Part shown: in pieces, positions 4,533-21,340 of the stretch | Numbering within the stretch: the stretch's first letter is position 1 | Layout of the letters: every line of letters begins with the position of its first letter | Assembly (NCBI GenBank): GCA_947626145.1 | Contig: CANQRB010000004.1 | Coordinates: 29,250 to 93,249 of the forward strand | Length of the DNA stretch: 64,000 bases | Direction: 5' to 3' | From: an uncultured Clostridia bacterium | Lineage (GTDB): Bacteria; Bacillota; Clostridia; UMGS1883 | The notes under the pieces: model-generated | Told to the model about the DNA's origin: nothing | What the model saw: only the letters and a program-made list of their open reading frames with translations | Database searches by the model: none | Position numbers and translations under genes: made by a program

Positions 4533-4706
4533 TTATTGTTTCTGCTTCCAAACCTTATAATCGTCAACAACAGATTTTGTATCTGTGATAACTTTTGCCC
4601 CGGTTATGCCTAAACTGGTCGCTTGGAACAGAACCCCGTCCATAACGGCCTTATCGGGAGACAGGTCTTTAATATCTATTGCGGGATTTTCAAATGCTTT
4701 TCTCAT
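4533..4706 (-). CDS. Small hypothetical protein (57 aa) translationally coupled downstream of the 1034-aa surface protein gene; below the ORF-track size cutoff
   Basis: GGAGG, 9-nt spacer, ATG at 4706, starting 14 nt after the upstream stop. Translation MRKAFENPAIDIKDLSPDKAVMDGVLFQATSLGITGAKVITDTKSVVDDYKVWKQKQ. Confidence 0.4.
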   Translation of the reverse strand: MRKAFENPAIDIKDLSPDKAVMDGVLFQATSLGITGAKVITDTKSVVDDYKVWKQKQ

Positions 4707-4720
4707 TTTAATCTACCTCC

Positions 4721-7700
4721 TTACAGCTCGGGAATGAAGTCGACTTCCGCACCAGCGGAATCAGCTTCGGTCTCGGCGATTTCGGTACTTACAAACTCAA
4801 TCTCAACACTGTCTAGGCTGAAGATCATAGCACCATCAACGCCTTCACAAGTAACATCATTGCCATTGATAGTTATCTTATAGAACAAGCCCTCAGTTTG
4901 AGTTGCTGTTTTATCTGTGCCGTTTACATCAACAATGGTAGATACCTTGAAGCCTATACCATTATCGTAAAGGGCTTTATCCAGTTCTATCGTTGTTCCT
5001 GCTTCACTGCTTGTAACTTTAATGAATTCTTTACGAACATCGTTAATAGCGTTCTTGTCATCAAGAACAACACCGCCGGTGCTGAGAATAGCAATGGCCT
5101 GTTCAAGCTTTTTTGCATCAAATTTTTCACGATTCAAAGTATCTTTGTAGTCGCTAAGGTTGGTTTTGATATCGTTAGCAAGCAACTCATAAAGAGATGC
5201 TTCAGCTTGAGCGATGAGATAACCGCTATTTGTGTCAACAAGCCTTGCCATATAGTAAATATTGCTTCCATTGTCTTTTTTCGGAATAACAAGTACAGAC
5301 GGAGCCCCGTTACTGAGGACAGAAGTGTCTATAGTCGTATTGTCTACTCCTTTACCGCCTTTTTCATTTGTTGTTTCGTGAAGATCAATAGCTGTAACCT
5401 TTAGCGTCTGTCCATCATAAGCACCATCGGCAGTAAAAGTTATGCCCAAAGTATCCGCACTGTCTCCATCAGCAGCAAAGCCAAGTCCAGCGGTGAGTGT
5501 AGCCGTCGCAGGAACGTCCACGCCACCTGCATATACGGCAAACTTGCTGATCTCAAGGTCTCCTTCACTTGAGGGATTGTTTCCAAAGAAGGAAACACCG
5601 TCAATTCCTCCATTGTTACGGAATGGTATGCCCATCAACATTTTACCTTCACCGGATGATTCATTCCGCACGGAAAGATTATATGTGTTATTTGTAACAT
5701 CAACATCTACGATAAAAGCATATGACTGATTAAGCTCCATTGTCATAAATTCTTTCTTGGCGGCGTTGTCTCTGTAGTAAATTTTGTCGCCACCGATAGG
5801 CAAATGAATACGAAGATTTGTGCCATACGCATCTGTCCCTTTTGCGTCGTACTTAAAAAATCCGATAGCGTTGTCGCCGTTTTGTTTGGCAACAAGAGTA
5901 AATGCGACGGTAAATTTGTCTGATATTTCTTTAGGGAAACGATACATTTCACTAAATGTCCTACCCTGATTGTTGATTACTGAGTTAGAACCAACGGTCA
6001 TGCCGGCTGTAGGATCAAATGTCTTTTCATGAGTCACAACATTTGCCGTCAAGGTAAGGCCTGTATCGGCGATAGTGCCGGTAGTATCCTCCCATGTTAC
6101 GGGCAATTCCTCGGCTGTCACTGCATCACTGTCAACAGTGGTCTTAATTGCGGTGGGAAGAACATAGTTATATCCTTCGAGAGTATTAATGTCAATGCTG
6201 TCGGGGCCGGTGATGGTGGCAGTTAACTCGGCCTCAACCTCAATTTCCTTAGTAGTGGTTGCGATAATAGTATCCTGATCAGACGCCTTATTGGTATAAT
6301 ATTTATCTGCTATGCGACGATTAGTAATAATCTTGCCATCACTGGCGGCACGGCCTTGATCAACGACCTGGTTTTCTGCAACTTTTACCGTTTCGCCTAC
6401 CTTGCCGGTCTGTTTCTCGATAGTGGCTACAGTTTGACCCTTGTATTTGGCATTTATGACGTAATCCACATCGTCGTTTTCAAGATTGCTAAGTTTGGTT
6501 ATTTTGAAGTTGTCGATGATGGGCTGAGTATCGTTACCGACCCAAGCGGTCTTAAAGCCCAGTTTTGTCTGCTTGGAACCGGTCCATACAATAAACTGCT
6601 TCGTCTCAAATTGATTGAGAGTGTGCAGGGTCATCTGCTGAAGCTTTTGGCTGGTATTGTCATTTTTGTCGGCATACCAATCAGCGCAGGGGTCGTCGGC
6701 CTCGCCGGTGCCATTGGCATCGGTTACGTAAAGCCACATATACTGATCCTTTGCCTGCTTGGTTGGCATGACGTCAAAGCTCACGAGATAACGGGTATTG
6801 GGGTCAACATTCCAAGTGCCGCCGAAAACAGTTCCGGCCGCACCGGCAACGCCCTTGAGCCAAAGAGCCTGGCTTCCTTCGGTCTTTTGGTTCTCACCCT
6901 TGACTATCTCATATTCTTCATTGGGTATATTAGTCCAACCATTAATACCATTTTCAAAGCCGTCGTTGGTGCCGGTAACAGTTCCCTCGACATTTTTTAC
7001 ATGTTTGGCGGTAATGTCGTAGTTGTTATTACCTTCACTCAAAGTGATCTCTTTGATTTCGGGGAGAGCAAGTTCATAAAGCTTTTCATTTTTAACAAGG
7101 TACTTGTTGCAACTGTTGAGAGAAAACTTATCTCCGGCAAAGTATTCCTTTTTATTTCCGTTTGGATTAGACTCCTCCAAAACATTTCCGCCGTCCATTA
7201 TGCGAACATTGACAGCAGCGTCGGGAGACAAAACCTTAACATCAGCAAGGTAAGCATCCTTAAGAGAAGCTACACCCCCAGTGGCATCTCCGCCGTGGAT
7301 ATTGGAGAGCAGAAAAGCGACCTTACCACCAACTATCTTATCGGCAGGAATACGGAGCTGAGACGTCACCTCAGTCCATGAATTAGATACATTTGATGTA
7401 CTCAGTGTTCCGACAAGAACTCTGCCCTCAACAGCAGTATCGAGCAGAGCGTTGTTCTCAGCTTCAACAGCTGCAGGGTCAACAGCAAAAATGGCAGCTT
7501 TAGATATACGGTCGTTAGCACCATTGTTAGACCATGCCTGAACCTTAAAGGTAGCCCGAAGAATTTGACCGGCAGCAACATTAGTGTCTTCTGGCAGTGT
7601 GAATTCAGCAAAACCCGCACGGTTATTTGAGAAAGACACTATGGCAGACTGAGCGTCTTGAACTTTGTATTCGTCAAATGTTTGCGGACGCTTAGCATCG

Positions 7701-7825
7701 GAATTAAAATTCCAACCATAAAGCTTATCTGCGGCGATATCTCCATCAGCCGCAAAAGCTACGGGCACTACTGTCAATACCATGGCCAAAACCACAGCCA
7801 ATGACAGAACTTTTTTGATTCTCAT
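4721..7825 (-). CDS. Large secreted multidomain surface protein (signal peptide; CBM4/9-like carbohydrate-binding and bacterial Ig-like regions); no SLH or LPXTG anchor seen
   Basis: N-terminal signal peptide MRIKKVLSLAVVLAMVLTVVPVAFA|AD. GFENGINGW...W segment typical of CBM_4_9. Ig-like beta-rich segments. Strong RBS GGAGGTAACAAAAATG. Confidence 0.7.
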   Translation of the reverse strand: MRIKKVLSLAVVLAMVLTVVPVAFAADGDIAADKLYGWNFNSDAKRPQTFDEYKVQDAQSAIVSFSNNRAGFAEFTLPEDTNVAAGQILRATFKVQAWSNNGANDRISKAAIFAVDPAAVEAENNALLDTAVEGRVLVGTLSTSNVSNSWTEVTSQLRIPADKIVGGKVAFLLSNIHGGDATGGVASLKDAYLADVKVLSPDAAVNVRIMDGGNVLEESNPNGNKKEYFAGDKFSLNSCNKYLVKNEKLYELALPEIKEITLSEGNNNYDITAKHVKNVEGTVTGTNDGFENGINGWTNIPNEEYEIVKGENQKTEGSQALWLKGVAGAAGTVFGGTWNVDPNTRYLVSFDVMPTKQAKDQYMWLYVTDANGTGEADDPCADWYADKNDNTSQKLQQMTLHTLNQFETKQFIVWTGSKQTKLGFKTAWVGNDTQPIIDNFKITKLSNLENDDVDYVINAKYKGQTVATIEKQTGKVGETVKVAENQVVDQGRAASDGKIITNRRIADKYYTNKASDQDTIIATTTKEIEVEAELTATITGPDSIDINTLEGYNYVLPTAIKTTVDSDAVTAEELPVTWEDTTGTIADTGLTLTANVVTHEKTFDPTAGMTVGSNSVINNQGRTFSEMYRFPKEISDKFTVAFTLVAKQNGDNAIGFFKYDAKGTDAYGTNLRIHLPIGGDKIYYRDNAAKKEFMTMELNQSYAFIVDVDVTNNTYNLSVRNESSGEGKMLMGIPFRNNGGIDGVSFFGNNPSSEGDLEISKFAVYAGGVDVPATATLTAGLGFAADGDSADTLGITFTADGAYDGQTLKVTAIDLHETTNEKGGKGVDNTTIDTSVLSNGAPSVLVIPKKDNGSNIYYMARLVDTNSGYLIAQAEASLYELLANDIKTNLSDYKDTLNREKFDAKKLEQAIAILSTGGVVLDDKNAINDVRKEFIKVTSSEAGTTIELDKALYDNGIGFKVSTIVDVNGTDKTATQTEGLFYKITINGNDVTCEGVDGAMIFSLDSVEIEFVSTEIAETEADSAGAEVDFIPEL

Positions 7826-7878
7826 TTTTGTTACCTCCTTAAAATTTTGCTAAAAAATAAATCCTCGATTTCATGCGC

Positions 7879-7906
7879 ACTTCCTATAAGAAATGCTATC
7901 GGAAGT
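7879..7906. repeat. Left recombinase-site-like inverted repeat: 10-bp arms around an 8-bp asymmetric core (ACTTCCTATA-AGAAATGC-TATCGGAAGT)
   Basis: 27/28 identical to the reverse complement of the site at 8187-8214. The asymmetric 8-bp core is exactly reverse-complementary between the two sites. Confidence 0.6.
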
Positions 7907-8023
7907 AAATTTATGCCGTTTTACGGCAATATTTACAACATAAAAATGAAAATTAGAAATTATTTGTTGAAATTGCACAATTACTCACAACAATTTTGTA
8001 CATTATGGATAAGGGAAAGATAT

Positions 8024-8052
8024 TGACTTTTTTATGGCAAAAGTAGTATAAT
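8024..8052 (+). promoter_or_regulatory. Consensus sigma-A type promoter TTGACT-17-TATAAT on the plus strand, inside the IR-flanked segment
   Basis: -35 TTGACT at 8024-8029, exact 17-nt spacer, -10 TATAAT at 8047-8052. Confidence 0.6.
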
Positions 8053-8186
8053 TAGATTATAAAATTTCATGTGCCGATCATAGGAAAGCCTCGGAAAAAG
8101 GCCGTGTTAAGCCGGATTTGCCCGGTTGACGGCGCAGAGGTCGACTGCAAAGCCAGCCTTGGAGCGATGAATGGCCGCTCGGTTTT

Positions 8187-8214
8187 ACTTCCGATAGCAT
8201 TTCTTATCGGAAGT
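8187..8214. repeat. Right recombinase-site-like inverted repeat (ACTTCCGATA-GCATTTCT-TATCGGAAGT)
   Basis: Perfect 10-bp inverted arms; core GCATTTCT is the reverse complement of the left-site core AGAAATGC. Confidence 0.6.
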
Positions 8215-8235
8215 TCGATGAAATCATACAAAAAA

Positions 8236-8283
8236 GCACCTGTGACAAGCTCTTTATCGTGAGCTTGCCGCAGGTGTTTTTTT
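8236..8283 (+). terminator. Intrinsic terminator: about 16-bp imperfect stem (gcacctgtgacaagctc...gagcttgccgcaggtg) then T7
   Basis: Hairpin 8236-8276 followed by TTTTTTT at 8277-8283; sits just downstream of the right IR and before the ECF sigma gene. Confidence 0.55.
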
Positions 8284-8318
8284 AATGTGATGCCGTTATT
8301 TTCGATATAACGCAAAAA

Positions 8319-8344
8319 GCAGCCGATTTCGGCCGCTTTTTTTA
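8319..8344 (+). terminator. Second intrinsic terminator (gcagccga-ttt-cggccgc then T8)
   Basis: GC-rich hairpin followed by TTTTTTTT; A run upstream. Confidence 0.45.
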
Positions 8345-8425
8345 TTATACGCCTACGTCGCAATCCGTTCTTTGGTATCATAGTTGTATAGGCTTGTATT
8401 TCGCATAAAAAATTTAAAATTTTCC

Positions 8426-8453
8426 TGCAACTTTTCGATCCTTTGCAACGAAT
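8426..8453 (+). promoter_or_regulatory. Candidate ECF-type autoregulated promoter (-35 TGCAAC, 17 nt, -10 CGAAT) just upstream of the ECF sigma gene
   Basis: The TGCAAC -35 resembles the SigM/SigX/SigW class; a second TGCAAC copy lies nearby; about 15 nt from the RBS. Confidence 0.3.
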
Positions 8454-8471: not shown

Positions 8472-9041
8472 TTGAGCGGATTGGCGGCGGAGCACGAGGA
8501 ACTTAAATGGATAAGGAAAATCAAGCTGTTCGGTTCAAAAAAAGACGCCGACAGTCTGGTTCGGTCTTATTACGATGAGATTTACAGATATGTATCCCGA
8601 CAGCTTCCCGACAGCGGGGACGCCTGGGATCTTACTCAGGAAATCTTTATATCCATGCTGCGCTCCATAAAGTCGTACAAAAAAGAACGGTCGTCCTTCC
8701 GCACATGGCTGTACCGCATCGCCACAAACAAAATTATAGACTGCCGCCGGAAAAAGGTTCCGACGACTGCCGCGCCCGACGAAGTCAATACAGCCGACGA
8801 TGCCGATTTTATAAGTCAAATCGCCCAGGCCGAGCTGCTGAAAAAAATCGAGGGCTATGTCAACCGCTTTTCGCCCGCCGTGCAGCAGATATACAGACTG
8901 CACATTTACGGGGATTTTACCTTCGCAAGCATCGCTTCAGCCCTGGACATCCCTGAGGCCACCGTAAAATCCCACTATTACAGATTGCAGAAAAAAATAA
9001 GAGAGGAGTTTGGCGATGAGTACAGAGACGTTGTCGAATGA
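8472..9041 (+). CDS. ECF (sigma-70 region 2/4) RNA polymerase sigma factor; TTG start at 8472 or 8481
   Basis: Sigma-70 region 2 (YYDEIYRYVSRQLPDSGDAWDLTQEIFISM) and region 4 HTH (FASIASALDIPEATVKSHYYRLQKKI). AGGAGG lies 9 nt before the TTG at 8481. Confidence 0.85.
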   Translation: MSGLAAEHEELKWIRKIKLFGSKKDADSLVRSYYDEIYRYVSRQLPDSGDAWDLTQEIFISMLRSIKSYKKERSSFRTWLYRIATNKIIDCRRKKVPTTAAPDEVNTADDADFISQIAQAELLKKIEGYVNRFSPAVQQIYRLHIYGDFTFASIASALDIPEATVKSHYYRLQKKIREEFGDEYRDVVE

Positions 9042-9759
9042 CGAAAAGGATATTGCCATAAAAAAAATTTTGGACGCGGGCGTCGTTACCCCTTGGGACA
9101 GGGTGAAAAAAAACTTGCTGGCGCTCCGTTTCTGCGCGCCGAAGCACATATTTTTCGACATGGGCGACTGCCTGTTTTTGGGACTGCTGGCGGCAGCGGC
9201 AGGTTGGATATTGCTTTTGAATATAAACGGCGGCTTTGTCTGCTGTTCCCTGCTGCTCGCCTCCCCTTTTGCATATATGATAACCTGCCTTCTGACGGCG
9301 TGGAAGGAGCGTCAACGGCGGATGTATGAAATAAAAATGACCTGCTATTTTAATCTGCATCAGGTGACGGCCCTCCGGATGCTGTATTTCAGCGGCCTTA
9401 ATTTAATTGTAAATTTTGTCATGATTCTGCTCGAACGCCGAATTTCTATTTTGGGAGCTTTGTTCTGGCGGCTTTTGGGCATTTCCTTTTCCGGCATATT
9501 TATTTACGGAGTTTTGCTAATAGCTTTCCAAATAAAAGTCCATGGCAGAATGTCCGTTATCTTACCGCCTGTTTTTTGGCTGATGATAAACAGCGTGATA
9601 TTCATTGTATGGAACGAAAGAATAGAATTTATAATATTAAATTTATCCGTTTATATAGTATATCTTGTGACGGCGGGACTGCTCATGCTGTATATTGCGA
9701 TGCTATACACCTATATGACGAATTGGAGAGGAGAAACAGACTATGCTTTCAGTGAATAA
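9016..9759 (+). CDS. Polytopic membrane protein, candidate anti-sigma factor (YxlC-like position), translationally coupled to the sigma gene
   Basis: Overlaps the sigma stop by 26 nt; AGGAG 7 nt before ATG 9016; multiple TM helices after a short cytoplasmic N-terminus. Confidence 0.5.
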   Translation: MSTETLSNDEKDIAIKKILDAGVVTPWDRVKKNLLALRFCAPKHIFFDMGDCLFLGLLAAAAGWILLLNINGGFVCCSLLLASPFAYMITCLLTAWKERQRRMYEIKMTCYFNLHQVTALRMLYFSGLNLIVNFVMILLERRISILGALFWRLLGISFSGIFIYGVLLIAFQIKVHGRMSVILPPVFWLMINSVIFIVWNERIEFIILNLSVYIVYLVTAGLLMLYIAMLYTYMTNWRGETDYAFSE

Positions 9760-10600
9760 CGTCACAAAAAAATACGGTGATTTCACTGCGCTTCAAGACA
9801 TAAACATTGAGTTTGACCGAGGAGTTTACGGACTGCTGGCGCCCAACGGAGCCGGAAAAACCACTCTGATGAAAATGCTGGCCACCCTTTCCTTCCCAAC
9901 AAAGGGGGAGATTTTGTGGAACGGCACGGATATATTTCAACTGGACGAGGAATACCGTGATATTCTGGGCTTTTTGCCGCAGAAGTTCGGCTATTACAGG
10001 AATTATTCCCCGCGCAGGTTCTTGGGCTACATGGCGGCGTTAAAAGGCATAGAAAAAAACGGGGCGGAGGAAAAAATCGACTCACTTCTTAAAAAGGTCT
10101 TTCTCGAAGAATTTGCGGATAAAAAAATGAAGCAGTTTTCAGGGGGTATGCTCCAACGGGTAGGCATCGCTCAGGCTCTGCTCAACGACCCCGAGCTGCT
10201 TATTCTGGACGAGCCCACCGCCGGACTTGACCCAAAGGAGCGGGTTCGCTTTCGCTCCATGCTCCACTCTTTGGCCGGTGAACGCATAGTTATTCTGTCA
10301 ACTCATATCGTTTCCGACATTGAAACAATAGCTGATAAAATAATTTTGCTTAAGGATCATAAACTGCTTTGCTGTGCCGCGCCCACAAGGCTGTGCTCCG
10401 CGTTGCAGGGCAAAATTTTTGAGATACCCGCCGACAGGCATATTGACGCGCCCTGTGAAATTCTGTATGAGCGCCAGACCGGAACAGGGACCGTCCTGCG
10501 TATTTACAGCGAGTCACGCCCTGACGGAGCAACGGAAACGGCCGCGAACCTTGAGGACGTGTTCCTGACGGTTTACCGTGACGAAAGGAGACAAAAATGA
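9743..10600 (+). CDS. ABC transporter ATP-binding protein
   Basis: Walker A GLLAPNGAGKTTL, ABC signature LSGGMLQRVGIAQAL, Walker B LLILDEPTAGLD. Confidence 0.9.
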   Translation: MLSVNNVTKKYGDFTALQDINIEFDRGVYGLLAPNGAGKTTLMKMLATLSFPTKGEILWNGTDIFQLDEEYRDILGFLPQKFGYYRNYSPRRFLGYMAALKGIEKNGAEEKIDSLLKKVFLEEFADKKMKQFSGGMLQRVGIAQALLNDPELLILDEPTAGLDPKERVRFRSMLHSLAGERIVILSTHIVSDIETIADKIILLKDHKLLCCAAPTRLCSALQGKIFEIPADRHIDAPCEILYERQTGTGTVLRIYSESRPDGATETAANLEDVFLTVYRDERRQK

Positions 10601-11751
10601 AACTGATAAAATCGGAAATTAAGAAGCTTGTATTTAACAAAAGCCTGTATTTTTTTCTGGCCATTTGCCTGACGTTAAATCTTGCGCTGATCGCTGTGAC
10701 GGGCGGCGAACGTTCTTATATAAAATATATTGGAGAAATCACGGCGAACGCCGGAGACAGGATCAACCGTTCTTTTCTTAATTATGTCAGCGCTTTGCCG
10801 GACAGCGAGTTCATCGACCGCCTCACAGCCGCCTGTGCCGGTGCGGGAAAAATCTTCGACAGCTTTGACGCGGCGGCATTGGGCAGAAACTGGTATTATG
10901 ATGAATACTATATAAAGTCCTCTTTCCTTCATAGAATGTTATATGAGAAATACGAAAAATTAAACAATTCAGTGAAATTGCTGAATTCCGAAAACGCCGA
11001 TCTGTCCGTTTACGGGGCCGACGCCACGGGGAATTTCCATGAGGCTCTGTTTACATATACACTCAAAGCGCTGATGATAGAGGGATTTATACTTATTTCT
11101 CTCCTTACGATCCACATAATGGGCATTGAACGTCAAAGCCTTACCGAGTCCATAATATATTCCAGCCGAAGAGGTCGGGCCCTTGTCAAAGACAAAATGT
11201 GCGCCGCCTGGATAGTGAATACCGGCTGCATCTTGCTGCTGTACGGGTCAACGCTGGCGTTTTTCTTTTCGGTATGGGATATCGGCGGCCTTTGGGAAGC
11301 CAACGTGTCAAGCTGCTTCCACCTTGTGACGGACGTTGATCTGCCGTTTCTGAAGCCTTTCCTCACTTGGACAAGCTTCACGGTAAGAGAGTATTTCACC
11401 GCGACTCTGCTTTTGGAAGCCGCATTGCTGTTGGTGTGGCAGCTCATATCCTCCTGCATCGGAATTTTGTGCGGCAGTTCCGCCAAAGGATTTCTGACGG
11501 CGGCGGCCTGCCTTACGGGTCCGTATTTTCTGCCGTTTGTTTTTAAATCGCTGAGCTGTGGGTGGTCATTTTATATTAACACCTTTTCCATCTCAATGTT
11601 AACGCTTAATCAGCATTTGTGGTTTACGGACATGGGTGTTTACGAGCTGCTGCCGTGGCAGGAAACCTTGTCGGCCGGAATACATTTATCCGTGTGTGTT
11701 CCGCTCTTTTTTACGGCAATTAAAATATTCAAAAGAAGGGAGCTGATGTAA
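10597..11751 (+). CDS. ABC-2-like permease / membrane protein
   Basis: N-terminal TM helix, large extracytoplasmic loop, then about five TM helices; 4-nt overlap with the ATPase stop. Confidence 0.6.
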   Translation: MKLIKSEIKKLVFNKSLYFFLAICLTLNLALIAVTGGERSYIKYIGEITANAGDRINRSFLNYVSALPDSEFIDRLTAACAGAGKIFDSFDAAALGRNWYYDEYYIKSSFLHRMLYEKYEKLNNSVKLLNSENADLSVYGADATGNFHEALFTYTLKALMIEGFILISLLTIHIMGIERQSLTESIIYSSRRGRALVKDKMCAAWIVNTGCILLLYGSTLAFFFSVWDIGGLWEANVSSCFHLVTDVDLPFLKPFLTWTSFTVREYFTATLLLEAALLLVWQLISSCIGILCGSSAKGFLTAAACLTGPYFLPFVFKSLSCGWSFYINTFSISMLTLNQHLWFTDMGVYELLPWQETLSAGIHLSVCVPLFFTAIKIFKRRELM

Positions 11752-12933
11752 ATGTTTGTCTGGGAGCTCAGAAAAGTTTGGACAAAGGAGCATATCTTAC
11801 TCATCGCCGCGGTCACGCTTCTTTTTTCTCTGACCTTTCTTGTACCGCCAATAAGGTCGGTGACTGTGACAGAAGAGGGCGAGGAAATCTTCTCCGCGAG
11901 GATGGGGATAATCAAGGAGTGGCTCAATAAATATGACACACAAATTACGCCTCAGGAATTTGAAGAGATAAAAAGGATCTATGATGAACGCCTTTCCGAC
12001 GGACAGGCTGTCATTTCAACGCAGCCCTATTTCGCGGAGAATAATGTGTTTACTTATGACGACTATCTTTCTTACGGTAATAACGCCCTGAACGGCGCGG
12101 AAGGCTACTCCTACGACAGCTTCCGCAAAATGCGTGAGTTCATATCCGAAGGCACCGATTATTCCGCCATGTATTATCAGGAGTATGAAGATCTCATACA
12201 TAAATATGTTGACGGCAGCTCGCGAAAAGCTCGTTATATTGAAACGCTCCTGTCCGGCAAAGCCGAAAAGGCCGCAATATCCGAGCTCGACACGCTTCGC
12301 CGAACCAAAGGCGTCGGCAGTCTGCTGCCCGGCGAACTTGTGTACGCCGCAAACCGTTACTATGTCAACCTCTCAATTTTGCTCATTATATTGGCGATGT
12401 TCATTTCCGGGCCTGTCATGGTCAACGATAATGCCAATAACATTCGGCCGGGGCAATACAGCAGCAAAATCGGTCTCAAAATATATCAGCGTCAGTATGC
12501 GGCCATGGCGGTTTCTCTTTCCGCACTTACGGCACTCATGCTCATCGGCAGCTTGACGCTTTGGCTTGCAGTCGGGGCCGGCCGCTTTTTCCAATGCGGC
12601 ATCTTTGCTTTTCAAATGATGGAAACGCCGGTGACGGGCGATCTATCGTTTGGCGTGTATTTGGTTTTGATTTCGGCGCTGATTTTTATTCTTGTAAACG
12701 GTGTTGGCGGGCTTATGTTTTATCTTTCCGGCACGAGCCGCAATTTTATCGAGATGCTGATGAAATCGATACCCGCCGCGGTTTTTGGGATAATGCTGTC
12801 GCTTTCTTTAAATGACCTGTTTCTCAATACAAACTTTCTTTTCCGTATGACAGGGATAAGAGGTGTGGAGATTTTTCCGGTTATTTTGATTTTCATATTT
12901 GGATTATTGATAAATTTAAAAGGGATACGTTAG
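11752..12933 (+). CDS. Second ABC-2-like permease / membrane protein
   Basis: Same architecture as the preceding gene; starts immediately after its stop; RBS AAGGGAG. Confidence 0.55.
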   Translation: MFVWELRKVWTKEHILLIAAVTLLFSLTFLVPPIRSVTVTEEGEEIFSARMGIIKEWLNKYDTQITPQEFEEIKRIYDERLSDGQAVISTQPYFAENNVFTYDDYLSYGNNALNGAEGYSYDSFRKMREFISEGTDYSAMYYQEYEDLIHKYVDGSSRKARYIETLLSGKAEKAAISELDTLRRTKGVGSLLPGELVYAANRYYVNLSILLIILAMFISGPVMVNDNANNIRPGQYSSKIGLKIYQRQYAAMAVSLSALTALMLIGSLTLWLAVGAGRFFQCGIFAFQMMETPVTGDLSFGVYLVLISALIFILVNGVGGLMFYLSGTSRNFIEMLMKSIPAAVFGIMLSLSLNDLFLNTNFLFRMTGIRGVEIFPVILIFIFGLLINLKGIR

Positions 12934-18259: not shown

Positions 18260-19069
18260 TTTTATTTATTCACTTTCTAATTGCAGGAAAACACCGCCAC
18301 TGTATGTCACGCCCCCTTTTGGGCGAATTTGTCCTCCGTACAATAAAAAATGCGCAGCTCATCGGAGCCGCGCACGAAAAATGCTTAGCTCCGAATTTAC
18401 TGCGACATAAATTAATATAACACAAAAGAAACGCATTTTTGGCACTCGCTCATTAAAAATGCAACCAGAGCGTTACAGGAGCAGCATTTTTACCAATGCT
18501 AATGTTGCTCCGGTTAGCACTTTTATACGTTAGAATGTTAAAACAATGATAGAAAATATAGGTACTCAAAAAAGAGCGCAAAAAGCGAACTTAATAAGCG
18601 TTTCTATATTAATCTATGTCGCAAATAAAGTATACCACACATTTTTCCGGTTGTAAAGTGTTTTTTTTTCGTAAATGAATAATTTTTTATAACATATTCG
18701 CCGCGAAACCCATCTAGGCGCTTATCTTGCTGCTGAACGGCTCCCCGACTGTTTTACAAAAGAGTCGAACATTGCACAAATTCGTTCTTCGTAGGAAGGA
18801 GCTGCCACAACATTTCCCTCCTTTTGCTAAAAATTGTTCTTGGTCGGTTTTCCCCCCCTTTGTAATACCGGAACAATTTAAGTTATACAAAATCGGAAAT
18901 TTTTTTAAATTATCTGAAAAAGTCAAAATAAAAAGGACAGATTAATATCTATCATTCTCAGTATTCAATTACATCGCCTTTAAAAATCCCCTCCGGCGCA
19001 TGAGGGGGTTTACGCCGGAGAAAATTTTATATATCAAAGAGGCCCGTGCCTCTTAATTTTTGCGGCCGG

Positions 19070-19744
19070 TTATGCCTGAGTCGCGGCGTCCGTCTTGACT
19101 CTGCGGAAGCGCACCAGACCCGTACGGTGAAGGGCAACCATTATTGCCGGGATAAGCACAAGTTGAAGTATTATTCCGGGGATGGCGTTAAGCACCGCAG
19201 TCTGCGCAGGACAAAAAACCTGAAAAGATGTCGATTTCGCCTGACTTTGTTGGTCTATGTTGCATGGCGATCCGCTTCTGTGCAAGCTCAAAGATTTCTT
19301 CGTCAATTAACGGCTCATGCGTATTAGGTAAGAAATAGCGTTGTTCTGCCTCTTTTTCGACTTATACGAAACCTTGTGTGTTTTCTCAGTGATGATATGC
19401 CCTAAATACTTTTACCGTGTCAGGATGTCAAACAGCGTTTTCTCCGGCCATGTGTAAGGAGCGATCAAGGCTTTCTGATGTCGCGCATTCCTCGTCCGCT
19501 CATAACGTAATGCACCGATTGTCAAAACCTTGTTGTCGTCAAGCCATCGCTGAATATCGCACATCTGAGTATCCTTCACATACATGACGAAAATCTGCTT
19601 GACTATGAGATGTATCCGTATGGATATTCCCCGTTGACGTGCTCGCCCTTTTGAGTCCGCGCCTGCTTTGCGGCTCGGTGGTTGTCGCTCGGCATATTCT
19701 CTCGGATATGTGTCATGGCACACCCGCCGTATGGCTCGGCGCAA
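19070..19744 (-). pseudogene. Low-confidence gene fragments: a C-terminal membrane-protein remnant at 19070-19306 and an unidentified remnant at 19412-19744, inside a 2.4-kb region with no intact long ORF
   Basis: Only short, mutually overlapping ORFs on both strands; mixed GC; no RBS-supported starts. Confidence 0.2.
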
Positions 19745-20366
19745 AAGGGATGTGTCCTTTGTTGCTGTTATGATGCCTCGCTGTTATCTTGCGGGCAAAT
19801 TTGTCGAGGTTCGTACAGATGGGGAGTATCGGAAAGGGGGATTTATGCGCCGCTCCAGGTCGTCGGGTCAGTTCACCTGAAAAGTCAGAATTTTTGTAAT
19901 GAGCTTCGTTTCCAGTCTGCTGATCTTCGTCTACGCACAAATGAGGATTGCCATACTCGTCGTTTTCGATGTACACTGTATGATCCAGAATACCGAAAGC
20001 CCTGTCCTCTTTGAAATAACTGTCTCAGACTGAAAGCTGATTCATTACTTCAACAGGAAATTCGACAAAGAAAATCGCCTGCCTGCACATGGCAGGCGGG
20101 CGAAACGGAACTAACAGAAGTATTTACGTGATTTATGTGTTCATCTTCCTCGGCAGGGTATCCCGCTTGCTGGGTCAGACTTCTTTTGAGCGAAGAACCA
20201 TTGCCGGAATTTGTCGATATGGAATAGGCTTCATGGCGGCTACCTCCTGTTAGCCGCCATACCTGTTAGCCTGCAGTTTCTTCCCTTGTATCAAGAGAAA
20301 TGGCAGCCTATGAAAAACAAGCATATAACCAAGAGCAGCAGTATATAGGCTCTGCGTCTATGCGTC

Positions 20367-20513
20367 TTACTCTTTTACAACCTCGATCCGTAGGTGTTCC
20401 TCGTTAATCAGCGTTTTGCGTTTGCATTTGGGACAATACAACGGAAAGTTCTCCAGAATGGTATCTTCCAGTATTTTAATTCGTGTTTTGCTTTTACAAA
20501 CAGGACACAACAC
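20367..20513 (-). CDS. Cys-rich KTR-type small zinc-ribbon protein (about 48 aa, non-ATG start GTG/TTG)
   Basis: Translation (M)LCPVCKSKTRIKILEDTILENFPLYCPKCKRKTLINEEHLRIEVVKE: two CPxCK motifs with the typical KTRxK spacing. Confidence 0.5.
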   Translation of the reverse strand: MLCPVCKSKTRIKILEDTILENFPLYCPKCKRKTLINEEHLRIEVVKE

Positions 20514-20716
20514 CAAAACGCTTTTATTTACTCCGATTCGAACTACTCCCTGCGAATTGCAATAAGTGTTTTAAACTATTACCCTCAACAAAGCACAACA
20601 ACCAGATATTTCCTGACGGCAATTTTTTGCGAAATGATTCCCGTAATTATCGTCGATGCATTGCTGTGAGCAGGTATTTATTTTGTAAAAAGTCGTTGCT
20701 GCCCGTATTTTAATTT

Positions 20717-21340
20717 TTACGATTTTTTGAACTTCGTTTTAAGCGCCTCAAAGTTTGCTTTCAGCTTGGCACGCTCAGCTTCCATTTTCTGCTTGCGTTC
20801 TGCGCTACGCTCAGCGTGCATCTTACGGCGAGCTTCGTCGGCAAGTTCTTTTTCTACGCGCATTGCTTCTTCTACCTCGTCCTGTACCAATGTAGCATCG
20901 CGTCGAAGAATCGTCGTTTGAAACTTATCGAACCGAAAATCCAGTGCATGATCTGTTTCCTCCTGCGCAAGGAGAAGAATCGCGACCTCACCGTCCTCCA
21001 GCTTTGATCCAACCGTTTCCAGCATTGTGTTGTTCCGATCCACATCATCAATGTCTTTGGCGCTTCCAATCAGATGACCTGTCATACCACCCAAAAGGAT
21101 GCCGAGAGGACCACCGAGAATTCCGATCAGACCGCCAATCAGACCGCCCGCGAGGGCGTCATCGCTGCTGTCCATGCCGCTTGTGAATGAGTCTATGGTG
21201 GAAATTATATTACCGTTTTTCTTTACAAGCGCCCCTTGCAATACGGTATATTGCGGCATAATTGGCTGCTTTTTGATTCCCATGTAGGCTTGATAGCCCT
21301 CGCTTTCCACATTGAACAAAATAGTTAAGACATTTTCCAT
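20717..21340 (-). CDS. Hypothetical protein with a glycine-zipper segment and a C-terminal charged coiled coil
   Basis: GGLIGGLIGILGGPLGILLGGMTGHLIG, then ERSAERKQKMEAERAKLKANFEALK. Confidence 0.5.
   Translation of the reverse strand: MENVLTILFNVESEGYQAYMGIKKQPIMPQYTVLQGALVKKNGNIISTIDSFTSGMDSSDDALAGGLIGGLIGILGGPLGILLGGMTGHLIGSAKDIDDVDRNNTMLETVGSKLEDGEVAILLLAQEETDHALDFRFDKFQTTILRRDATLVQDEVEEAMRVEKELADEARRKMHAERSAERKQKMEAERAKLKANFEALKTKFKKS

Follow-up and report, generated by a model that had tools for sequence, protein, structure and literature searches.

A probable tyrosine-recombinase promoter inverton beside a large secreted-protein gene in an uncultured Clostridia bacterium

In a 64-kb stretch of contig CANQRB010000004.1 from an uncultured Clostridia bacterium (the whole stretch analyzed, here called the window), the gene for a 1034-amino-acid (aa) secreted protein lies beside a 280-bp segment that is bounded by two inverted 28-bp sites and contains a promoter pointing away from the gene. 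The question raised by this locus is whether the segment is a switch that a recombinase can turn, so that the promoter faces the gene, or an arrangement of some other origin. Comparison of the sequences led us to regard it as a probable tyrosine-recombinase promoter inverton, captured in its OFF state, that serves a family of large secreted proteins and depends on a recombinase acting in trans, with a rough probability of 0.7. Switches of this type are already well known, and the window would hold a further case; the more interesting by-product is a cross-phylum dif/lox-like site family with private spacers.

Two 28-bp sites had been placed at 7879-7906 and 8187-8214 in a preliminary description of this DNA, and they were located exactly there (Table 1). 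When read as 10-8-10, the right site was ACTTCCGATA GCATTTCT TATCGGAAGT, with both arms perfect, and the left site was ACTTCCTATA AGAAATGC TATCGGAAGT, with a single mismatch (T for G) in the outer arm. The 10-bp inverted arms given in that description were therefore right for the right site, and a mismatch had been overlooked in the left outer arm; the claim that the two cores are exact reverse complements agreed with the sequence. Upon scanning the window with 3 mismatches allowed, the two sites were the sole copies in 64 kb, and no copy was obtained in 100 shuffles. The inverted repeat extended beyond 28 bp, to 34 nucleotides (nt) at 94% identity or, with one indel, to ~43 nt at 93% identity, the added bases being AAA toward the segment and GATTTCAT away from it. 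The locus thus has an inverted-repeat pair around a short segment, as promoter invertons do, and each site has paired inverted arms around an asymmetric 6- to 8-bp crossover region, as do sites of the Cre/lox or Xer/dif type. The inverted geometry had been held to argue against operators. The cores are indeed inverted; however, both sites are co-oriented along the two divergent transcription units, so that geometry by itself cannot exclude operators or RNA hairpins, and it is the comparative data, and not the geometry of the sites, that appear to exclude them.

Two modules homologous to that of the window over the entire unit, comprising the 5' untranslated region (UTR), left site, promoter, leader, right site, and terminator, were found in the uncultured Clostridia metagenome-assembled genome (MAG) Lapin-021__bin62 (loci L086 and L069). 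Each adjoins a surface-protein gene that is paralogous and encodes the same signal peptide, and the right-hand neighbors differ; with the surface-gene side conserved and the right side varying, the module goes with the family of surface-protein genes. Across modules (alignment A1), which were ~18% different elsewhere in the segment, the arms, the two hexamers of the promoter (TTGACT at 8023-8028 and TATAAT at 8047-8052 in the window), and an 80-nt leader block were unchanged. Spacers of the two sites were matched in the window (AGAAATGC / GCATTTCT) and in L086 (AGTATTAC / GTAATACT) and had one mismatch in L069 (AGGAATGT / ATATTCCT). Within the species, both sites were changed relative to the window in L134 (AGAAATAC / GTATTTCT), and the polymorphic spacer position was changed in the left site only in L002. 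Concerted spacer change at such low divergence would fit exchange between, or selection on, both sites together. Inner arms were perfect in all modules, and the left outer arm was always degenerate (ACTTCCTATA or ACTTCATATA), a pattern expected of crossover within the spacer, by which inner arms would be exchanged and outer arms would stay where they are.

We scanned one GTDB genome per species with the pattern ACTTCCNATA-N8-TATNGGAAGT. The preliminary description had proposed a search of the genome for other site copies; in this wider scan, the pattern was present in at least 118 stretches of species genomes, compared to ~9 expected by chance (5.96e11 positions x 4^-18, even base composition assumed), and Xer-like genes adjoined the site in many phyla. 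When all open reading frames (ORFs) of the at least 118 loci were clustered, a tyrosine recombinase was the commonest neighboring protein family; a profile built from this family matched in 30 of the loci and not in the window. A recombinase gene was found within 200 bp of the site, and often 10 to 60 bp from it, in ~23 of these loci. The neighboring recombinases matched XerC, XerD, and XerA models with scores under the family cutoffs, and the nearest solved structure to the Firmicutes type (266 to 290 aa) was archaeal XerA. Since target sites of simple tyrosine recombinases typically adjoin the recombinase gene (PMC10250229), the association is what a recombinase and its site would be expected to show. 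In a partner search per locus, inverted partners 146 to 390 bp apart were found in at least 11 unrelated loci (L017, L019, L024, L028, L029, L038, L069, L086, L114, and L128, with L075 at 2.3 kb). Spacer identity within a pair was 7 to 8 of 8 positions (8/8 in 12 of the 14 pairs counted), and between loci it was on average 3.7/8, with a maximum of 6. Partner sites thus share their crossover and unrelated sites differ, as predicted by the Cre/lox rule that recombination occurs only between sites with the same spacer (PMC10250229, PMC3082901). Across the copies (>118), position 11 was mostly A and position 18 mostly T, which indicates that the true layout is 11-6-11, 28 bp in all, the geometry of dif. 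Hosts among the matches listed were Clostridia, Lachnospiraceae, Bacteroidota, Lentisphaeria, Rhodothermales, Acetobacteraceae, Gammaproteobacteria, Acidobacteriota, Actinomycetota, and others, and a scan of viral contigs for the site gave 5 matches.

The window site resembles loxP, and its arms are related to experimentally defined recombination sites. SloxM1 consists of CTCGTGTCCGATA ACTGTAAT TATCGGACACGAG in a 13-8-13 layout (PMC3082901). The window sites share with SloxP two inverted arms and an asymmetric 8-bp spacer, and their inner 7 bp (TCCGATA / TATCGGA) are those of SloxM1, whereas the outer arm positions are different; in sites of the Cre/loxP type, the orientation of the spacer determines whether inversion or excision occurs (PMC3082901, PMC10250229). 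The Firmicutes recombinases beside the site are XerA-like and, at 266 to 290 aa, differ from Cre-like proteins of ~340 aa, and the natural role of SCre/SloxP is plasmid resolution, whereas gene switching is proposed for the window site. The left outer arm ACTTCCTATAA is identical (11/11) to the XerC-side arm of Staphylococcus aureus dif (ACTTCCTATAA TATATA TTATGTAAACT; PMC11040001), and the arm matches the XerC side of Bacillus subtilis dif at 10 of 11 positions (PMC3025954). The length of 28 bp and the 11-6-11 layout are those of Xer/dif sites, including XerS/difSL, XerH/difH, and archaeal XerA/dif (PMC3025954), and in many genomes the site is located directly upstream of an Xer-like gene, as difSL is for xerS. 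In contrast to Xer/dif sites, both window arms are of the XerC type, without an XerD arm (TTATGTAAACT), and promoters are flanked by inverted pairs of the sites, of which a genome has several, in place of a single terminus copy for dimer resolution. A chromosomal dif site was rejected, as there is no TTATGTAAACT-type arm and the two copies lie 308 bp apart, with more at paralogous loci. Of the lox/FRT-like site initially proposed, the likeness to a recombination site was retained, and an Xer/dif-like (11-6-11) or SloxP-like site fits better than an FRT-like one.

A junction of the inverted type was observed in L134, of which the sigma factor is 99% identical to that of the window. The interior of L134 has the same orientation as that of the window, and the surface-protein gene is missing beyond its left site, where there is an inverted paralogous two-terminator flank, which is 89% identical to the right flank of L134 itself (269-428 versus 703-863) and 86% identical to the L086 flank. 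This junction (terminator flank, site, left interior end) has the structure expected after inversion or inter-module recombination, and a double-terminator module is predicted to arise if the left site of one module recombines with the right site of a second module that has an identical spacer. For a different member of the site family, an opposite junction of this kind was found on two contigs of one MAG (L097 and L028). Over positions 1-870 of L134, the module is bracketed by diverged two-terminator units on both sides.

The promoter in the segment is of the sigma-70 type. The preliminary description gave it as a perfect TTGACT-17-TATAAT at 8024-8052; a promoter is present there, with a spacer of 18, a start at 8023, and a match to 11 of 12 consensus positions. 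Upon scanning the minus strand, no promoter-like site facing the surface-protein gene was found in the sequenced state, and the gene can thus be driven by the internal promoter in one orientation only, as in a promoter inverton. Downstream of the promoter, the two intrinsic terminators described earlier were confirmed by folding, as 8230-8283 and 8306-8349. Surface-protein homologues at 36 to 38% identity (L135/L136, L137, and L138) are without 28-bp sites and have a strong promoter, TTGACA-17-TAxxxT with an extended -10, on the gene strand, 140 to 190 nt upstream of the start codon. Their leaders contain CGG[AGGUCGA]CCG ~80 nt before the start codon and have GAGGTCGAC in common with the window leader; around the AGGUCGA hairpin, 16 of 22 bases of the window match L137. 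The similarity between the virtual ON leader and the leaders of these fixed-promoter homologues is suggestive, and the window segment looks like the normal promoter-leader unit of the family, turned from the gene and bracketed by recombination sites. Sequences similar to the conserved element CAATTTTGTACATTAT upstream of the -35 hexamer (AATTTGT(A/G)CAT) were also present upstream of the fixed promoters in L135-L138, and this element may be an activator site or UP element. A protein search with the N-terminal 199 aa of the surface protein gave one match, on a short contig, and in scans of Joint Genome Institute (JGI) metagenomes, the conserved RNA 22-mer and the right-junction pattern each gave 0 matches.

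The lox-like invertible promoter put forward in the preliminary description is thus supported by the adjacency of Xer genes, the inverted pairs, the paralogous modules, the L134 junction, and the fixed-promoter homologues. From these data we infer inversion at the window locus, the identity of the recombinase, and an effect on expression, as follows. Each 28-bp site would provide two inverted 11-bp arms for an Xer/Cre-type recombinase around a 6- to 8-bp crossover, and with crossovers that are reverse complements, synapsis and strand exchange would invert the segment and not delete it. In the OFF state, as sequenced, the strong promoter at 8023-8052 would fire rightward and yield an RNA of ~170 to 225 nt that is stopped at two strong terminators, leaving the 1034-aa gene without a promoter of its own. 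In the flipped, ON state, transcription from this promoter would run through the leader and the left site to the ribosome-binding site (RBS) and start codon at 7825, which would restore the promoter-leader-gene order of the switchless homologues, the left site adding ~28 nt to the leader. The predicted flipped junctions join CATGCGC-site to AAAACCGAGCGGCC and CGGCATAAATTT-site to TCGATGAAATC. The recombinase would be encoded elsewhere and act in trans, and is probably small and XerA/XerC-like, as are those beside the site in other Clostridia and Lachnospiraceae. A spacer of its own for each paralogous switch would prevent recombination between switches.

Phase variation of surface structures by such segments is familiar from the RecV switches of Clostridioides difficile (cwpV, flgB, and cmrRST) and from fimS of Escherichia coli with FimB/FimE. 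There, as at the window locus, a segment of 150 to 350 bp between inverted repeats is located upstream of a surface-structure gene, and the tyrosine recombinase may be encoded elsewhere and serve several switches in an ON/OFF manner. The window differs in that its repeats are full two-arm 28-bp palindromic sites with a locus-specific spacer, in that the segment carries a promoter together with a conserved leader and its OFF direction ends in two dedicated terminators, and in that flipping and recombinase are predicted from sequence. The promoter-bearing invertons of gut Bacteroidota and Firmicutes cataloged by PhaseFinder-type analyses likewise lie beside surface-structure genes, with tyrosine recombinases often nearby and inverted-repeat families common to strains (PMC11892184, PMC11602134). 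The repeat motif of the window was not found in the text of these two sources, which give their motifs in figures only. A literature search by site sequence returned primers only, and we did not find the site family described in the literature, in a search of limited reach.

Several observations weigh against a switch that is active at this locus. All contigs that span a junction of the locus (window, L002/L131, L001, and L004) were in the sequenced orientation, as were the paralogous modules L086 and L069, and the flipped state of the locus was absent from all spanning assemblies; this uniform orientation counts against frequent flipping, though assemblies report the majority state only. The left outer arm has 1 to 2 mismatches and L002 and L069 have one spacer mismatch each, either of which could reduce activity or be a sign of decay. 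Neither the 64-kb window nor the related loci contain a recombinase gene; for the window, the preliminary description had stated as much, and none was found with a tyrosine-recombinase hidden Markov model on all ORFs of at least 100 aa and with Pfam on 29 ORFs. The left flank of L134 is paralogous and may result from an old rearrangement or an assembly join across paralogues rather than from ongoing switching, although even in the case of an assembly join the left junction must exist in the reads. The likeness of the leader to those of the fixed-promoter homologues is short (the 9-mer GAGGTCGAC and its context) and not significant by BLAST. The one orientation of every spanning assembly and of both paralogous modules, the left outer arm that is degenerate in all modules, the spacer mismatches of L002 and L069, and the lack of a nearby recombinase would suit a former inverton that no longer flips, its recombinase lost or its sites decayed, in which case only the short terminated RNA would be made and the surface gene would be silent or driven from elsewhere. 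We consider such a locked switch unlikely, as arms, spacers, promoter, and leader are strongly conserved though the paralogues are ~18% different elsewhere, the spacers of the window and L134 changed in concert within the species, which points to recent homogenization or selection, and the long ORFs are intact; moreover, an assembly shows whichever state predominates, and with several paralogous switches in one genome this is expected to be OFF.

It is quite improbable that the sites work without recombination, either as paired operators of a dimeric regulator that acts by roadblock or by looping over 308 bp or as RNA hairpins in the divergent transcripts. Such roles would be consistent with the co-orientation of the sites relative to the divergent transcription units, with the ability of each site to fold (right, -13.0 kcal/mol; left, -7.0 kcal/mol), and with the direct site arrays within 5' leader regions of some Clostridia MAGs. 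However, the arm sequence is the same in different phyla, with no compensatory change, and the spacer, or loop, is free to vary, which argues for protein-bound DNA with a crossover and not for an RNA stem. Neither operators nor hairpins require the covariation of partner spacers. Tyrosine recombinase genes adjoin the site in ~23 of the at least 118 loci, and flanks are exchanged precisely at the site in L134; in addition, the modules of L086, L069, and L134 have no regulator gene with them, and the locus does not have the features of looping operators. In favor of a miniature mobile element or small-RNA gene with terminal inverted repeats, inserted by chance and unrelated to control of the surface protein, are the length of the unit (342 bp), its terminal inverted repeats (~43 nt), its internal promoter and terminated RNA, and the several copies in one related MAG. 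This we regard as extremely unlikely, since all copies occupy the same position, next to paralogous surface-protein genes in which the 5' UTR and signal-peptide region are conserved, so that the duplicated unit includes the surface-protein gene, and since no target-site duplication flanks the unit, the module gave 0 plasmid or phage BLAST matches, and there is no further copy in the window.

If the promoter inverton is active, an uncultured gut Clostridia lineage would phase-vary a family of very large surface proteins that are secreted, with a private switch for each, which would matter in the gut for adhesion and for evasion of phages and the immune system. The site motif (dif-like arms and a free spacer, often near a small Xer-like gene) provides a simple handle by which tyrosine-recombinase switches can be sought in many phyla from the genome sequence alone, and it may lead to compact recombinase/site pairs that are naturally orthogonal in their spacers. 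A wider view, which we hold to be doubtful, takes the ACTTCCGATAA-N6-TTATCGGAAGT palindrome as the mark of a cross-phylum, horizontally spread family of spacer-addressed inversion modules. One small XerA/XerC-like recombinase would then serve many switches per genome, and, the arm being identical to the XerC side of dif, the housekeeping XerC/CodV itself would be conceivable as the recombinase. The 6- to 8-bp spacer would be a private address that keeps switches independent, modules sharing a spacer would recombine and thereby re-deal one promoter-leader cassette among surface-protein genes, as L134 suggests, and the conserved leader with its AGGUCGA loop would add a further control layer inside the switch.

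Copies of the site in other genomes were found in several settings. In the Lachnospiraceae loci L019 and L128, the order is recombinase gene, inverted pair, and csrA, and in L028 csrA is followed by an inverted pair with a promoter-like element facing two terminators and by these terminators, the same design as in the window. The csrA-like genes lie directly beside the inverted pairs (L019, 3644-4100; L128, 6811-7250; L028, 1400-1710), which suggests phase-variable csrA expression in Lachnospiraceae. Direct tandem copies of the site, every 95 to 182 bp, were seen in several Clostridia and Lachnospiraceae MAGs (L078, 3447-4030; L049, 92-417; L056, 4461-4788; L083, 7195-7404; L021, 1274-1491). 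The L078 array lies between a promoter-like region and a secreted-protein gene, with a half-site at each end, and tandem arrays of this kind may represent leader copy-number variation via excision or integration. In Lentisphaeria/Victivallaceae (L022, L029, L041, L064, L084, L088, L113, and L129), site copies abut the 5' ends of prepilin-type (FTLIEL) genes; in L029, an inverted pair 190 bp apart is located immediately upstream of such a gene.

Table 1. Coordinates of the switch module and the adjacent surface-protein gene in the window
Feature	Position	Strand	Remarks
Left site	7879-7906	.	ACTTCCTATAA-GAAATG-CTATCGGAAGT; outer arm degenerate, inner arm perfect
Right site	8187-8214	.	ACTTCCGATAG-CATTTC-TTATCGGAAGT; inverted relative to left site, spacer its exact reverse complement
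Extended left repeat arm	7866-7909	.	GATTTCAT, 4 nt, site, AAA; aligned to right arm
Extended right repeat arm	8184-8226	.	TTT, site, 3 nt, ATGAAATC; aligned to left arm
Segment predicted to invert	7907-8186	.	280 bp, bounded by both sites; homologous segments in L002/L131, L134, L086, and L069
Sigma-70-type promoter	8023-8052	+	TTGACT-18-TATAAT; 11/12 consensus positions; points away from surface-protein gene
Conserved element	7991-8006	+	CAATTTTGTACATTAT; upstream of -35 hexamer; invariant in alignment A1
Putative leader or short RNA from switch promoter	8059-8186	+	Block ~8095-8175 (80 nt) nearly invariant between modules
Small predicted hairpin in leader	8134-8148	+	GCAG[AGGUCGA]CUGC; loop recurs in L135-L138 leaders with CGG/CCG stem
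Intrinsic terminator 1	8230-8283	+	-32.7 kcal/mol, then U7; ends switch transcripts in sequenced orientation
Intrinsic terminator 2	8306-8349	+	-14.9 kcal/mol, then U7
Controlled gene (putative), 1034-aa secreted protein	4721-7825	-	Signal peptide, weak carbohydrate-binding-module-like matches; identical protein on record
5' UTR of surface-protein gene	7826-7878	-	RBS GGAGG 7834-7838; conserved in alignment A1

The transcribed interior of the segment was compared with known RNA families. Rfam gave 0 matches over 8060-8186 at E <= 1, and at E <= 10 nothing credible was obtained, only a chance-level match to a miRNA model on the opposite strand; a cyclic di-GMP or other riboswitch was therefore dropped, as no Rfam family matched. 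The folding z-score of approximately -6 was mostly due to the terminator and became -2.0 without it and -0.6 for the conserved core, and only 1 compensatory base pair was found in the leader among four sequences. Because the z-score fades without the terminator and a single compensatory pair was seen, a structured RNA is not claimed. Small leader peptides (ATGAAATC, MKS..., on both outer flanks) were dropped as well, no ORF being conserved across modules. The hairpin with the AGGUCGA loop lies at 8134-8148 in the window, ~480-495 in L136, ~520-536 in L137, and ~2402-2418 in L138, and the leader-hairpin sequence GGTCGACC is itself palindromic.

The 1034-aa ORF starting at 7825 in the preliminary description is real, an identical protein being on record. 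Directly downstream of every surface-protein homologue examined is an ORF of 57 to 59 aa that looks like a conserved partner gene (window, 4533-4706 on the minus strand; L001, 3288-3461; L135, 3449-3628; L137, 3772-3951; L138, 5726-5905). On the right of the switch is an extracytoplasmic function (ECF) sigma gene, followed by an anti-sigma-like gene and an ATP-binding cassette (ABC) transporter. For this gene, the TTG at 8481 is the probable start, since the 186-aa product is exactly on record and the 189-aa version is not. The switch module is missing from homologues of the sigma/anti-sigma/ABC cassette (59 to 72% identity), and on this ground we rejected a role of the sites as promoter elements of the ECF type or in the control of the sigma operon. 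As the paralogous modules also have other right-hand neighbors, the ECF sigma operon appears to be an incidental neighbor of the switch; of the switch originally described as lying between the surface-protein gene and the ECF operon, the link to the surface protein was retained and that to the operon was not.

Just upstream of the ECF sigma gene, at 8419-8447, TGCAAC-N17-CGAATA resembles an ECF-type autoregulated promoter, and this is the sole intergenic stretch that aligns with the sigma upstream regions of L006-L008 (~72% over 46 to 68 nt, with weak BLAST E-values). The cassette itself comprises five genes (window, 8481-12933; L006-L011), and in other genomes, in which it is 59 to 72% identical, it adjoins Mob relaxases, a primase, or a large serine recombinase, as if on mobilizable elements. 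Positions 4000-34000 of the window form 30 kb of ~44% G+C inside a genome of ~57% G+C and include both giant surface proteins, the ECF cassette, a toxin-antitoxin-like region, dnaK/dnaJ-like genes, and a two-component system. A stretch of ~2.4 kb at 18260-20720, without an ORF of >110 aa, looks like decayed coding sequence and is located upstream of the gene for a 1443-aa protein with S-layer-homology domains and an M4 peptidase.

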